Origin: a virus
Taxonomy: Duplodnaviria; Heunggongvirae; Uroviricota; Caudoviricetes
DNA length: 10,701 nt
IMG/VR virus record: IMGVR_UViG_3300027917_003468
Location: 64,001 to 74,701 of that record
Strand: one strand, 5' to 3'
The notes below the pieces were generated by a model. The model had not been told where the DNA came from and ran no database searches. It saw nothing but the letters and a program-made list of their open reading frames with translations. Made by a program: the position numbers and the translations under genes. The first letter of the stretch is position 1. Every line of letters starts with the position of its first letter. Of the stretch, positions 2 through 4,955 are shown piece by piece.

Positions 2-346
2 GCAGCGGTTGCTAACGACGTGGCGAATCCCAGACAGGTATATCAACTGTTAAAGGATGAGTTCTACGTCGACCCTGATAGATTAGTTCCTCTATACAAG
101 GCCGAGGATGGTGAGATGTCACTTGATGAAAGAGTAAAAGTATTTTTAGATGATCCTGACAACTGGAACCTTGTAAGATCAAAAATACCTATGGGTAGTG
201 GATCACAGGGTTCGGTTGGAGGCGGTGGAAAACACATGTTTACAAAAGCGGAGTTAACAGACATGAGGCAAAACCGCCCAGATGAATATAAAGAAAGACA
301 AAAAGAAATCCTTAAGGCCTATGCAGAGGGACGTGTAAAACCGTAA
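2..346 (+). CDS. 5'-truncated probable capsid scaffolding protein (C-terminal part)
   Basis: Frame is open from position 2 (AAVANDV...), so the track start at GTG 20 is probably internal. It has a Gly/Ser linker (GSGSQGSVGGGG), a short charged C-terminal helix ending ...KAYAEGRVKP, and lies directly upstream of the major capsid gene, the usual scaffold position. Confidence 0.6.
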   Translation, partial: AAVANDVANPRQVYQLLKDEFYVDPDRLVPLYKAEDGEMSLDERVKVFLDDPDNWNLVRSKIPMGSGSQGSVGGGGKHMFTKAELTDMRQNRPDEYKERQKEILKAYAEGRVKP

Positions 347-368
347 CTCTGTCTTAAGGAGATATCCC

Positions 369-422
369 ATGCCACTAGGTACAGATTTTGTAACAACAAG
401 CGAAGTCGATTGTTTTATCCCT
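369..422 (+). CDS. Major capsid protein, exon 1 (MPLGTDFVTTSEVDCFIP)
   Basis: AAGGAG RBS at 356-361 and ATG at 369. Eighteen codons end in CCT (U422), and an in-frame stop follows one codon later if unspliced. Joined to 958 it gives FIP|ELWSDEI, the typical N-terminal motif of P22-coat-like capsid proteins. Not in the ORF track. Confidence 0.88.
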
Positions 423-957
423 AAATAAGCTTGGGGCTTATGTGGGTGACCACATAAGAAAACGCTATAAATTCAGGGGAACCCCTAACGTAAAGTCGAG
501 GGCAATCCTGAGGCAAGCAAGGAGAGGTAAGGTGCAAAGACAAGAGGTGGATAGCAAGATAGTTAACAGTATATGTAATGACTATACTGTTAATATGCTG
601 ACACAGCGTGATATCGCAAAAAAATATGGTATAAAACGAGGGGTTATTATAAGAATACTCAAAGAATCCCACATTGCGTCTCGTTCACGCCACTATAGAA
701 GAACTCCTCAGCACCGCACTTTTACCTGTAATTATTGTGGTAGAGAATTTAATGATCTTGTTGCTTACTGTAACAGATGTCACCCTAAACACTACAATGA
801 TTATATAAAAATCCTTGAAGCTGCAACGACTATAATTAGCGGGACTCTTTTTACAAGGAGTTCATGGGATAGTCTGAACTGTGCGGAAACGCACAGAGGT
901 AATGAGAAATCATTACCCGCCTAGCAATTAGCACTAGGTCACAAAAGTAACAGCTAG
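423..957 (+). mobile_element. Group I self-splicing intron (535 nt) in the major capsid gene
   Basis: P1: CCCUAA 419-424 / UUGGGG 431-436 with U422.G433 wobble. P10: AAGCUU 427-432 pairs with 3' exon GAGCUU 958-963. P2: 437-445/450-458 with GUGA loop. P3: CGCUA 463-467/UAGCG 837-841. P4: UCAGG 473-477/CCUGA 507-511. P5: CCCU 483-486/AGGG 499-502. P6a: CAAGGA 518-523/UCCUUG 812-817. P7: GACUAU 828-833/AUAGUC 869-874. P8 at about 842-863. P9: 879-885/890-896 with GAAA loop. Extra hairpin 898-905/910-917 with GAAA loop. Terminal G957. Excision restores the reading frame. Confidence 0.93.
532..924 (+). CDS. Intron-encoded ORF (130 aa): HTH plus zinc-finger, probably a degenerate homing endonuclease
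   Basis: AAGGAG at 519-524 precedes GTG 532, a better start than the track's GTG 442. HTH-like segment TQRDIAKKYGIKRGVIIRILK and CNYC-x10-CNRCHPKH. It begins in the P6 loop and reads through P7-P9 to TAG 922-924. No intact HNH, GIY-YIG or LAGLIDADG motif is visible. Confidence 0.6.
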   Translation: MQRQEVDSKIVNSICNDYTVNMLTQRDIAKKYGIKRGVIIRILKESHIASRSRHYRRTPQHRTFTCNYCGREFNDLVAYCNRCHPKHYNDYIKILEAATTIISGTLFTRSSWDSLNCAETHRGNEKSLPA

Positions 958-1794
958 GAGCTTTGGTCCGATGAAATACTCGACGCTTTGGAACATGCAC
1001 TTGTTATGGCCAAATTGGTCAACACGGACTTTTCCGATCTAGTTCAAGGAAAGGGTGATGTGGTTAATATCCCAACGGTAACAAATTTAACAGCCAACGA
1101 CAAGGTTATTAAAACGCCTGTTACCGTACAATCCCCTGACGAGACATGCATTAGTATCACCGTTGACAAGCACAAAGAAGTAAGCTTCCTGGTAGAGGAC
1201 TTCGTTGAGATTCAAACTTCTGTGAATCTTAGAAGCATCTATACTAGGAGAGCTGGATATGCAATTGCCAAAGTTATTGACGATGACCTGATCACACAGG
1301 CAGGAACATGCTTTGACTGCATTGACAGTACTTCCACAGGTAATACCAGTACTCTTAACGAGGACGACATCCTTCTGGCAAAAACATTGCTGGATGAGAA
1401 TGACTGCCCAATGGAAGATCGTCATATTGTTGTAGCCCCACAGCAGTATAACAGGCTGCTTGCTATTGATCGATTCACAGAACATCGTATCCTCAATAAC
1501 GATGGTCGGCCAATCGAGAGAGGTGTTATCGGTACAATTCATGGATTTACTGTATGGATGACCCAACAGCTTGCTGCCACTGGAACGGCGACAACGGATA
1601 CAGTGGATACACTTGTATTCCATCGAGATGCGATGGCGATGTTGCTGCAGCTCCGTCCAAGAGTACAGGCTAACTATGTGCCTGAGTATCTTGGCTGGCT
1701 TGTAACAACTGATGTTATGTATGGTCTCGGATGTTTAAGGGATGATTGGGGATACATCATCCAAAATGATGCTATCACATACGACACATGCTAA
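958..1794 (+). CDS. Major capsid protein, exon 2 (spliced product 296 aa; HK97 fold, P22-coat-like)
   Basis: Frame is open from 958, just after TAG 955-957: ELWSDEILDALEHALVMAKLVN...GKGDVVNIP...ITVDKHKEVSFLVED...AGYAIAKVIDDDL...P.EDRHIVV...G.IGTIHGFTV...D..YG. The motif order matches phage coat proteins. A terminator follows. Confidence 0.88.
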   Translation, partial: ELWSDEILDALEHALVMAKLVNTDFSDLVQGKGDVVNIPTVTNLTANDKVIKTPVTVQSPDETCISITVDKHKEVSFLVEDFVEIQTSVNLRSIYTRRAGYAIAKVIDDDLITQAGTCFDCIDSTSTGNTSTLNEDDILLAKTLLDENDCPMEDRHIVVAPQQYNRLLAIDRFTEHRILNNDGRPIERGVIGTIHGFTVWMTQQLAATGTATTDTVDTLVFHRDAMAMLLQLRPRVQANYVPEYLGWLVTTDVMYGLGCLRDDWGYIIQNDAITYDTC

Positions 1795-1805
1795 GCTAGT
1801 GAAAC

Positions 1806-1843
1806 TGGAGGGGGGAGGTTTAGGCCTCCTCCTTCTACTTTTT
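1806..1843 (+). terminator. Rho-independent terminator after the capsid gene
   Basis: 14-bp stem TGGAGGGGGGAGGT (1806-1819) / GCCTCCTCCTTCTA (1824-1837) with G.U pairs, 4-nt loop, then CTTTTT. Confidence 0.75.
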
Positions 1844-1868: not shown

Positions 1869-2318
1869 ATGCCCCTACCTACCAGAACAGTCAAAAGATT
1901 AAAAGACGGCGCAATAAAGAGGATGCAAAGTGGTTCAGCAGCAAAACTCGTTGCTAGAGGAGGCTACGAATATATAGATGGTGGTGTAGATGAAAGTGAG
2001 AAGATGAAAGTGGAACAAGCACAAAGAAAAAGCTACAAGAAAATTTCAAATACTGATTCTGATAAAATTGTTACTAGAGACTTGAAGATTGGCCCGTCTG
2101 AACTCGCACCGGAACAAGTAAGAAAGCTACGAGGACCCAGGAAAATTATAAAGAAAAAAGATGAAGTGCCTGAATCGGTAATGAAACAGATTCGAGCAGC
2201 AAACAGTGCAAATATCCCCGCCACTACCACATTAGGAAAAGGAGCCGATGCCCTGAAGTCCCTTATTGAAGAGACGAAAGCAAAACGGAAAAGAGCTAGA
2301 CGGACGGGGACAGGTTAA
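1869..2318 (+). CDS. Lys/Arg-rich hypothetical protein (149 aa)
   Basis: AAAGGAGA RBS upstream. The stop overlaps the next start (TAATG at 2316-2320). No family recognised. Confidence 0.75.
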   Translation: MPLPTRTVKRLKDGAIKRMQSGSAAKLVARGGYEYIDGGVDESEKMKVEQAQRKSYKKISNTDSDKIVTRDLKIGPSELAPEQVRKLRGPRKIIKKKDEVPESVMKQIRAANSANIPATTTLGKGADALKSLIEETKAKRKRARRTGTG

Positions 2319-3190
2319 TGGGGAAAAGAAAATCTTCGGAACAGGGCCAAATTCGTAATGCGATATTGAAAGGCTCCCTGAAAAAATCCCTGTCTCTACC
2401 ACCGACAGGGATTGTAGGACTTGATGGCAAAGTAATTGAACGCCCTATCAAACGTCTACCTAAACTGGATAAGGAAGAGAAGATTTTAGATATATATGCT
2501 CCCTGTTCTTGGCCTTTTGTATACAGAAAATTCATGGTCAATTTCTGTCGAATTATACATCCAAAAATGATGGTGCCTCTAAGGAAATTTGGTATTACAG
2601 ACTATTTTTGGGATATCAACTCAAAATTTCCAGTCTGTAAAAATAGAAATACAGCTGTCTTGAAAGCTAGAAAATACAATGCTGACTATATGATGTTTAT
2701 TGATGCTGATATGCAACATCCACCAGATATTGTATACAGACTGGCAAAACATGAACTTCCTATTGTTAGTGGTATGTATTTCCATCAAGCACCTCCACAT
2801 CTGCCAGTTTGTTATCGACACAAAGAAGCTCATAATTACGTTCATTGTTGGGATTATCCAAAAGACAAGTTATTTGAAGTTGATCTGATTGGAATGGGAT
2901 GTGTACTTGTGGATATGAGAGTGTTTGATGATATTGATATGCCTTATTTCAAGTATGATTCGAGTCGTGAGGATGGAATTGTTGATGTGACTGAAGATGT
3001 AGAATTTTGCAAAAAGGTTCGAGCTGCTGGATATAATATTATGGTTGATCCTAGTGTTCAATGTACTCATATAAATATTGATGACGTCGCACAAACACAT
3101 TTCGAAGCCTATATGGAACAGTATCAAACTTATACTGCGTTAATGGAGAAATTTGGAGATGGAACAATTAGCAATATTAGTGATGAATAG
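2318..3190 (+). CDS. GT-A fold glycosyltransferase (GT2-like)
   Basis: DxD motif in YMMFIDADMQHPPD, then SGMYF, IGMGCVLVDMRVF and TEDVEFC, a motif series typical of GT2-like enzymes. Basic N-terminal extension. Confidence 0.82.
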   Translation: MGKRKSSEQGQIRNAILKGSLKKSLSLPPTGIVGLDGKVIERPIKRLPKLDKEEKILDIYAPCSWPFVYRKFMVNFCRIIHPKMMVPLRKFGITDYFWDINSKFPVCKNRNTAVLKARKYNADYMMFIDADMQHPPDIVYRLAKHELPIVSGMYFHQAPPHLPVCYRHKEAHNYVHCWDYPKDKLFEVDLIGMGCVLVDMRVFDDIDMPYFKYDSSREDGIVDVTEDVEFCKKVRAAGYNIMVDPSVQCTHINIDDVAQTHFEAYMEQYQTYTALMEKFGDGTISNISDE

Positions 3191-3524: not shown

Positions 3525-4955
3525 ATGCGGAGTTTAGAGGAGACGGTAGCGATGGTACGAAAAGCACTTACATTCACCGAAGAGGAGATCACAGCTTTTC
3601 ACGAAGAGATGCTATACCCCGTAGTAAGGATACAAGCAAAAAGCGCACTTGGATCTGGTTCTATTATTTACAGTAAGCCAAAACAAGATATCCCATCAGA
3701 GTATGAAACCTATATTCTGACGAATCACCATGTAATTGATTCGGCCATTACACAGGTTGAAAAGTGGTCGAGCCTTCTCCAAAGAAAATATAAGGGAGAT
3801 GTCTTTGCTGATGTTGATGTGGAAATTTTCGAGTACCAGTATGAATCTTGGGAACCCACCCACCATACTATTCCAGGTGAGATTGTAACCTACGACCAGG
3901 ACCAGGATTTAGGATTGGTTCGCCTAAAGACGGTAAAGCCAATGAAATATGTCGCCAGGATGCTGCCAAAAGGTGAATCAAAAAATAGACTGCGTATGTT
4001 TATGACAACGCTTACAGTCGGATCCGGTCTTGGTGAAGAGCCTTTCCCCTCTATCCCAGGTATGTTAGCCAACTTGAATCGGAGAATTGCAAACACAGAT
4101 GGGAAAGGTTACACATTCCACCTGAGTAGTTCACCCTCAATTTTTGGGAATTGTTTAGTAGGAGATTCGTTGGTCTCTATGTCAGATAATACGGTCAAAC
4201 CCATAAAAGAAATAAAAGAAGGTGACTTTGTATGGTCATGTTCAAAGGGAGGTGTGAGTTCTGATAACAAAGTCGAAAGATTTATTGAGTCTGGAGAAAA
4301 AGATATATATGAAGTAAAAACTAGAACTTGTTTATTAAGAGCATCTGATAATCATCCAGTTCTAAAGTTCAGCAAGCGCCCTGCACAATATAATCATCCT
4401 CCTGTTGATATATGGTTTAAATGGGCGAAAGTAGAAGATTTAGCAGATGGAGATTTAATCGCTGTTTTTGATGGGCAGATTGGTTGCTCTGGGAAGATGC
4501 AAAAACAAGAATTAAATATTGAGGGATTTGACAACAAAAACATTCCAACTGGACTGCATCTAGAGAAGGTCGAAAAAATGAAGGTAGTGGGTAAAGAAAA
4601 AACTTATGATATTAAACTGGATCACCCCCACAACTTCTTTGCAGATGGAGTTCTAGTACATAATAGTGGTGGGGCCTGTTTCCTTACAGACACGCATGAG
4701 ATGATTGGGATCCCTTCTAGAATCGCAGTTACTGGCAGATTAGGTAGTGATGCAATTACACATATGGGCTACATTATTCCTATTGAACGTGTATATCGAT
4801 TCTTCAAAGCCGAACTATTATATTTCCTCTACGATTCAAATTACACATCTGATCAGTGTTTTGATCTACGGAAAAAGAAGCGGGAGGAAGATGAGAAACG
4901 AATGGCAATAGATATTAGTAGGAATGGTGAGGTAGATACAAGTAATAACAGTTAA
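3525..4955 (+). CDS. Trypsin-like (S1/Trypsin_2) serine protease precursor containing an intein
   Basis: GSGSII; triad His in YILTNHHVI (CAT 3729-3731); Asp in YDQDQDLGLVRL; nucleophile motif IFGN|SGG is restored after intein removal. Followed by E.IGI....A.....GY.IPIE, typical of this fold. The start may be ATG 3552 (AGGAG at 3538-3542). Confidence 0.87.
   Translation: MRSLEETVAMVRKALTFTEEEITAFHEEMLYPVVRIQAKSALGSGSIIYSKPKQDIPSEYETYILTNHHVIDSAITQVEKWSSLLQRKYKGDVFADVDVEIFEYQYESWEPTHHTIPGEIVTYDQDQDLGLVRLKTVKPMKYVARMLPKGESKNRLRMFMTTLTVGSGLGEEPFPSIPGMLANLNRRIANTDGKGYTFHLSSSPSIFGNCLVGDSLVSMSDNTVKPIKEIKEGDFVWSCSKGGVSSDNKVERFIESGEKDIYEVKTRTCLLRASDNHPVLKFSKRPAQYNHPPVDIWFKWAKVEDLADGDLIAVFDGQIGCSGKMQKQELNIEGFDNKNIPTGLHLEKVEKMKVVGKEKTYDIKLDHPHNFFADGVLVHNSGGACFLTDTHEMIGIPSRIAVTGRLGSDAITHMGYIIPIERVYRFFKAELLYFLYDSNYTSDQCFDLRKKKREEDEKRMAIDISRNGEVDTSNNS
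4152..4664 (+). mobile_element. Mini-intein (Hint domain, 171 aa, no endonuclease)
   Basis: Block A CLVGDSLVSMSDNTVKPIKEIKEGDFV starts at TGT 4152. Block B LRASDNHPVL. Blocks F/G KTYDIKLDHPHNFFADGVLVHN end at AAT 4662-4664. The +1 residue is Ser (AGT 4665-4667). No LAGLIDADG blocks. Confidence 0.93.

Follow-up and report, generated by a model that had tools for sequence, protein, structure and literature searches.

A major capsid gene that is split after codon 18 by a 535-nt group I intron very probably occupies positions 369-1794 of IMG/VR record IMGVR_UViG_3300027917_003468 as analyzed here (a probability of roughly 93%). The record is from an uncultured tailed phage, and the whole stretch of DNA analyzed, 10,701 nt, is called the window. 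The predicted splice sites enclose exactly 423-957 and are supported by a covariance-model match, an intron-less homolog and covariation among introns at the same site in four relatives. An earlier note on this DNA had proposed a ribosome-binding site (RBS) followed by ATG 369, an 18-codon first exon and the removal of 423-957 to join FIP to ELWS in frame, and all of these coordinates hold. It had also claimed that the intron is hidden from open reading frame (ORF) callers. The mechanical ORF list does begin the capsid frame at TTG 988 (988-1794), and the database gene calls in four intron-bearing relatives (P0005, P0008, P0009 and P0014) are N-terminally truncated.

The exon 1 frame runs from ATG 369 into a lysine codon and a stop at 423-428, inside the intron. 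The exon 2 frame opens at 958 as ELWSDE (ELWSDEILDALEH) and ends with the stop at 1792-1794. Excision of 423-957 joins the two in frame into a 296-residue capsid protein of the N4-gp56/Phage_capsid_2 type with the predicted junction peptide CFIPELWSDEILDALEHALVMAK (CFIPELWSDE). Given U422 just ahead of the intron and G957 at its end, 423-957 is the sole in-frame excision that yields the P-E junction. A 3' splice site at G953, the G of AACAG that is used by family member L085, was rejected; it would put the exons out of frame and spoil the agreement with homologs.

Exon 2 matches Pfam Phage_capsid_2 (PF19821) with 49.3 bits (cut-off 25), P22_CoatProtein was also matched, and PHROG 267 (phrog_267, 'major head protein') is matched with E 9.5e-53. 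The PHROG alignment opens at profile position 43, and exon 2 alone therefore misses an N-terminal piece. The ORF upstream of the capsid gene matches head scaffolding PHROGs, and homologs of exon 2 are named 'N4-gp56 family major capsid protein' by JGI. The above-threshold profile scores and the position after a scaffold gene identify the product as a Phage_capsid_2/N4-gp56-like major capsid protein (MCP) with the HK97 fold.

A search of 5.8 billion proteins retrieved P0003, an intron-less homolog with which the spliced product could be compared as the earlier note had suggested. P0003 has 296 residues, the length predicted for exons 1 and 2 together, and is 96% identical to exon 2. Its N-terminus (MPLGTDFVTQNEVDCFIPELWSDE; MPLGTDFVTQNEVDCFIPELWSDEILDALEH) crosses the predicted junction uninterrupted as CFIP/ELWSDE (EVDCFIPELWSDEILDALEH; the slash marks the junction). 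Most other close homologs likewise read across the junction, and the pattern F(I/L/V)P(E/M)(L/I/V)W(S/A/T) is kept there in most other homologs, down to about 40% identity. Intron-less DNA was compared using L008 and L009 (P0004), and L008 reads TTCATCCCT/GAAATATGG at the insertion site.

Ribozyme structure and predicted splicing

The covariance-model check put forward in the earlier note was run with Rfam RF00028. The whole model (1-253) matched the + strand at 413-896 with 55.4 bits, above the gathering score of 50 (E 4.1e-12), and no other Rfam family was found in the window or in the 14-kb viral record around it. This score, a P1 helix with a U.G pair at the 5' splice site, a terminal omega-G with P10, and a covarying core in which P8 is weakly informative identify the element as a group I intron.

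The contigs of P0005, P0008, P0009 and P0014 all hold an insert at the same codon as the window intron. A helix model was drawn by hand in window coordinates and mapped onto an alignment of five same-site introns, the window copy and those of loci L001, L002, L006 and L007, which are alignable over the whole ribozyme core. The earlier note had held that nearly all core helices could be drawn by eye; the set from P1 to P10 is complete, including P9.1 and P9.2, with compensatory changes in P2-P7, P9, P9.1 and P10. The splice-site features that it had listed, the U422.G433 wobble, the 6-bp P10 and the terminal G957, are all present. P1 with its U.G wobble is kept in 5/5 copies. A second pair type occurs at six of the nine P2 pairs, mostly with both sides altered, and P3, P4, P5, P6 and P7 each have at least one pair that changes with pairing kept. 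The P6 pair G513-C821 of the window is C-G in three relatives, a compensatory change. Such changes affect 5/7 pairs in P9 and 7/8 in P9.1. P10 tracks the codons of exon 2, with GAGCUU/AAGCUU in the window, GAGAUU/AAUCUU in L002 and GAAAU/AUUUU in L001. The segment 463-511, which holds the P3 5' strand, P4 and P5, is 82-98% identical to many phage introns.

The 3' domain was analyzed across 32 diverse members of a wider intron family described below. RNAalifold recovers P7, P9, P9.1 and P9.2 from these sequences, with double changes in 17 of 26 pairs. Paired cells amount to 94.2%, compared to 30-50% when the partners are slid. The covariation score is 0.572 against about 0.1 in controls, and 0/500 shuffles reach 0.572.

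The sequence predicts guanosine-dependent self-splicing by the following pathway. In the late transcript, the CCCU at the end of exon 1 would pair with the internal guide UUGGGG to form P1. Free exogenous guanosine, bound at P7, would attack after U422. P10 (AAGCUU 427-432 with GAGCUU 958-963) would position the 3' exon and G957 would enter the G-binding site. The exons would then be ligated to ...AUCCCU/GAGCUU..., giving the mRNA for the 296-residue capsid protein. Unspliced RNA would give only a 19-residue peptide because of the stop at 426-428. It is reasonable to infer that every capsid subunit would depend on ribozyme splicing.

Table 1. Features of the split capsid gene in window coordinates, and same-site introns in the coordinates of their own loci
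Feature	Position	Strand	Details
RBS AAGGAG	355-360	+	8 nt ahead of ATG 369; read from sequence
Capsid exon 1	369-422	+	18 codons; translation MPLGTDFVTTSEVDCFIP
Group I intron	423-957	+	535 nt, A423 to omega-G957; preceded by U422
P1	419-424 with 431-436	+	exon CCCU and intron AA against internal guide UUGGGG; U422.G433 wobble at 5' splice site
P10	427-432 (AAGCUU) with 958-963 (GAGCUU)		6 bp
P2 hairpin	437-458	+	9 bp, GUGA loop
P3 5' strand	463-467	+	five-copy pair table
P4	473-478 with 506-511	+	five-copy pair table
P5	483-486 with 499-502	+	five-copy pair table
P6 5' strand	513-523	+	partner 812-821; includes AAGGAG (519-524), likely RBS of intron ORF
Intron ORF	532-924	+	GTG 532, stop 922-924; 130 aa; helix-turn-helix (HTH) and zinc-ribbon remnant; in P6 loop
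P6 3' strand	812-821	+	followed by J6/7
P7 5' strand	828-832	+	
P3 3' strand	837-841	+	
P8 hairpin	844-861	+	
P7 3' strand (UAGUC)	870-874	+	covaries with 828-832 in 32 sequences
P9	879-896	+	GAAA loop
P9.1	898-917	+	GAAA loop
P9.2	919-939	+	invariant
Capsid exon 2	958-1794	+	278 codons plus stop; first 6 nt form P10 with 427-432
Terminator-like hairpin and T-run	1806-1837	+	just 3' of capsid stop; consensus match only
L001 intron	2637-2920		284 nt; no ORF
L007 intron	5-327		323 nt; short ORF remnant
L006 intron	988-1830		843 nt; 227-aa ORF
L002 intron	1971-2952		982 nt; LAGLIDADG_2 ORF (Pfam E 4.6e-20)

Counter-evidence and alternative explanations

Several observations weigh against this reading. 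P8 and P9.2 show little or no covariation; P8 aligns poorly across the wide 32-sequence set, and the invariance of P9.2 comes partly from the search pattern, which fixes one strand. The 5' half of the structure rests on five sequences only. The RF00028 alignment misplaces J6/7-P7 at 530-543 (GGUGCAAAGACAAG), at the start of the intron ORF; the true J6/7-P7 is 818-833 (GAAGCUGCAACGACUAU), as shown by the ORF-less relatives and by pairing. The bulk of the RF00028 score thus comes from P1-P5 and P7'-P9. In the same-site relatives L001, L002 and L007 there was no RF00028 match, with L001 and L002 tested at the gathering score.

The placement of the ORF in the P8 loop by the Rfam alignment is ruled out by the same ORF-less relatives and pairing, and the ORF occupies the P6 loop. 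The ORF start AAGGUGCAAAGAC (530-543) resembles J6/7-P7 GAAGCUGCAACGAC (818-833) enough to mislead Rfam, and the same resemblance is found in L006. It may be a trace of the insertion of the endonuclease gene.

There is a small chance that the intron is real and splices itself inefficiently. The capsid gene would then be dead in a defective phage, or splicing would need a protein helper, such as a host factor or the product of the HTH/zinc-ribbon ORF in the role of a maturase. The degenerate endonuclease ORF is still open over 130 codons, which could mean that a non-nuclease role has been retained. However, the core helices are all intact, and the changes relative to the relatives are compensatory and not disruptive. 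The same core is found in the ORF-less L001 and L007 introns, which means that the intron can persist without the ORF. Frame damage is absent from the exons, which share 96% identity with the intron-less allele.

From a 17-mer at 500-516 (GGGCAATCCTGAGGCAA), the earlier note had also suggested a possible kinship to compact tRNA-Leu(UAA) introns of bacteria. The string itself stands: it agrees with the trnL-type sequence at 16/17 positions in the window and 17/17 in L001, and cyanobacteria are among the holders of the exact 17-mer. The kinship does not. More than 120 prokaryotic genomes (cyanobacteria, Omnitrophota, Planctomycetia, Bacteroidota, Bacillus, Pseudomonas, actinobacteria and DPANN archaea among them) contain the exact 17-mer, as do more than 114 viral contigs, giant-virus bins included, and the RF00028 consensus holds nearly the same string. 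Because it is present in so many unrelated genomes and viruses and in the Rfam consensus, the 17-mer is, judged by its distribution, a generic P5'/J5-4/P4'/P6 element of the group I core and is uninformative on specific kinship. Its single mismatch, G513, is compensated by C821 in P6. A blastn search with 411-530 against isolate phages matched 135 records. The matches are introns, and the genes that they split encode DNA polymerase, terminase, lysin and other products in phages of Staphylococcus, Vibrio, Bacillus, Escherichia, Ralstonia and Lactococcus. For P3-P5, the top DNA matches in isolate phages are introns in DNA polymerase, terminase and lysin genes and in the head gene of Lactococcus phage Tuc2009. 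The window intron and the tRNA-Leu(UAA) intron are alike in their compact size and in the generic core string GGGCAAUCCUGAGCCAA. Unlike the latter, which lies in a tRNA anticodon loop and has no ORF, the window intron sits in a protein gene and carries P9.1 and P9.2 extensions. Neither insertion in a tRNA anticodon loop nor specific sequence kinship to this type was found for the window intron, and a specific relationship to these IC3-type introns is very unlikely.

Least likely is the view taken from ORF calling, in which 369-428 would be a mini-ORF without meaning, a small independent gene at 442-924 or 532-924 would encode a DNA-binding protein or endonuclease, and the capsid protein would start internally at TTG 988 or ATG 1006: the mechanical list gives 988-1794 as the capsid frame and the database calls of relatives begin at similar internal codons, but TTG 988 has no preceding RBS, the 18 residues of exon 1 are fused in frame in intron-less homologs with FIPE(L/I)WS conserved down to 40% identity, and neither the covariance-model match nor the covarying ribozyme helices fit this view.

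With the capsid gene read as split by the intron, gene callers shorten the capsid proteins of the window phage and several relatives by 18-34 residues. RF00028 misses the tested same-site relatives, and capsid phylogenies and protein clusters built from viromes therefore inherit the error.

Intron ORF and related introns

The window ORF was compared to the 227-residue ORF of the L006 intron. The two are 56% identical and differ by a single in-frame gap of 101 residues. The residues gone from the window ORF hold CQEC...NVHHKLP (CQEC...VHH), the front half of the HNH motif, and the window ORF keeps only NDLVAYCNRCHPKH, fused to the upstream CNYCG. Neither the HNH catalytic motif (CxxC ... HH ... 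N ... CxxCH) nor a Pfam HNH match was found in the window ORF. The Pfam HNH match of the L006 ORF is weak (16.3 bits, under the cut-off of 21.4), and its motif is visible by eye. The N-terminal HTH part of the ORF matches the PHROGs 'DNA binding protein' and 'HNH endonuclease' (phrog_1303 and phrog_7545). By this alignment, the intron ORF is an in-frame deletion derivative of an HNH-type endonuclease with its catalytic core lost. Because the core has been lost, the window copy of the intron is probably unable to home on its own. The 5' strand of P6 holds the likely RBS of the ORF (519-524), so intron folding and ORF translation should compete and be mutually exclusive.

The states found at this site, intact (L006), deleted (window), nearly lost (ORF-less copies), and re-invaded by an unrelated LAGLIDADG gene (L002), look like stages of a homing cycle and fit the established model of it. 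The P6 loops of L007 and L002 begin ATG CAA CAA... and are, by eye, remnants of the window-type ORF. One site with four homing stages is a convenient natural series, here in a gene that must supply each virion with hundreds of copies of its product.

The L002 intron (IMGVR_UViG_3300005077_000010) has an unusual layout. Its LAGLIDADG ORF at 2158-2840 seemingly lies between the P7 5' and P3 3' strands, as judged by eye, and is flanked by complementary GGCUGG/CCAGC; P7 has an A.C mismatch. The P6 loop retains the HNH-type ORF remnant, placing two endonuclease families at two places in one intron.

Related introns were sought by their 3' domain. The 3' tail CTAGGTCA(N1-2)AAAGTAACAG was located in 81 viral and no fewer than 119 metagenome stretches (for example L085 1188-1403, L133, L203, L025, L029 and L144), which gives 152 distinct occurrences. 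The family is marked by a near-invariant 3' end consisting of P7' GAUAGUCUGAAC, then P9, P9.1 and CGCCUAG...CUAGGUCAyAAAAGUAACAG. The 140 nt upstream of each tail were scored with a hidden Markov model of the 3' domain (nhmmer), and the downstream exon translations were clustered. Genuine introns precede one exon cluster of 89 sequences, which is capsid-like by its protein-language-model neighbours (0.98, Phage_capsid_4/N4-gp56 clusters; a lead only) and in which the intron sites take at least eight positions. They also precede the capsid family of the window and exons that match head-protein PHROGs 283, 371, 1328, 2522 and 1357. Genuine members lie almost exclusively in major capsid genes, which belong to seven or more sequence families. 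Three loci have other hosts: two lie in a tail-tube-like family and one possibly in the gene of a tape-measure-like protein, and both assignments are weak leads. Matches to the tail pattern in DnaK, GroEL, ABC-transporter, oxidoreductase, phosphatase and epimerase genes have no upstream intron domain (nhmmer 0) and were discarded as chance matches in a very large database.

The RF00028 gathering score was reached in 0/12 family loci tested outside the window. At E<=0.01, ten family loci were searched and only L029 matched, with 31 bits. Three 3' tails occur inside 2 kb at L057 2700-4800, where they separate short capsid-like exons and small Cys-rich ORFs, and this locus looks like a multi-intron capsid gene.

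The case is evenly balanced for a large lineage of compact group I introns, of which no description was found in the searched literature, that is spread almost only among virion structural genes. The capsid-gene bias of the family looks real but is given even odds, since the search pattern was itself taken from capsid introns and one phage group dominates the sample. If the bias is real, it would point to a mechanism that targets the introns to late, highly expressed capsid genes or retains them there, and to systematic mis-annotation of capsid genes in viromes.

Two neighbouring genes were also recorded. The window encodes at 3525-4955 (+) a 476-residue trypsin-like peptidase with an intein; Pfam Intein_splicing covers residues 217-380 (E 9.8e-11), and Trypsin_2 lies N-terminal to the intein. 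A glycosyltransferase-like gene with weak Glycos_transf_2/Anp1 and phrog_1574 matches lies two genes after the capsid gene in conserved synteny (window 2318-3190, L002 4314-5153, L006 3186-4034).

Comparison with known phage introns

Classical phage group I introns (T4 td, nrdB and nrdD; SPO1; Twort) sit in genes of DNA metabolism. The window intron shares with them the predicted splicing chemistry, an endonuclease ORF that loops out of a peripheral helix and a stop codon, in frame, shortly past the 5' splice site; it also resembles cases in the literature in its degeneration through a homing cycle. It differs in its capsid host gene and in that no P7.1/P7.2 extension between P7 and P3' was seen in the window by eye.

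Against isolate phages, a megablast search with 1-2400 gave only a 43-nt match, to a lysin-region intron of a Staphylococcus phage, and blastn with the 3' domain (810-957) gave no match. The best isolate-phage match to P4-P5, 95% over 43 nt, is in Staphylococcus phage IME1367_01 (L010; KY653124.1 40531-40579). It sits between two coding-sequence fragments of an amidase (lysin) and looks like an unannotated lysin-gene intron.

On the strength of the classical examples, the earlier note had called the capsid gene an unusual host. This does not agree with published cases in Tuc2009 (GenBank annotation), mycobacteriophage LittleE (PMC3706429) and crAss-like phages (PMC7886860). In Tuc2009, the major head protein (mp4) is annotated as orf37 plus orf39 'linked after excision of group I intron' (GenBank AF109874.2). 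This orf37-orf38-orf39 arrangement resembles the window in its ORF-bearing group I intron near the 5' end of the major head gene and its short exon 1 (55 codons in Tuc2009), and in P3-P5 the two introns share 81.5% identity over 54 nt (window 454-507). Tuc2009 differs in its capsid family and host, in its larger intron ORF (310 residues) and in a 3' domain without detectable DNA similarity.

Splicing of a capsid-gene intron was proven in LittleE by reverse transcription PCR and N-terminal sequencing, in a study that also cites Tuc2009 (Pope et al. 2013, PMC3706429). Efficient splicing of the capsid mRNA is compatible with phage growth in this case (PMC3706429). The LittleE intron lies in the gene of the major capsid subunit, contains an HNH endonuclease gene and, like the window intron, has a U before the 5' splice site and a terminal G. 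The LittleE endonuclease gene is transcribed in the opposite direction and the intron type was left uncertain, whereas the ribozyme of the window is well defined and its splicing is predicted only.

Group I introns were described in MCP genes of the Delta and Zeta groups of crAss-like phages (Yutin et al. 2021, PMC7886860). Gut jumbo phages are reported in a 2026 paper to carry compact group I introns at about 18 per genome, and metatranscriptomes confirmed half of these introns (PMC12880540). As in the window, both sets are metagenomic phages whose core genes, the MCP gene included, are fragmented by introns with HNH or LAGLIDADG genes, and annotation pipelines mis-call the gene fragments. 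They have many introns per genome or gene compared to the one found in the window, and they belong to other lineages and another habitat. Capsid-gene group I introns have already been described in several phages, and the window leaves the knowledge of group I introns in general unchanged; it is no surprise and is a well-documented new example.

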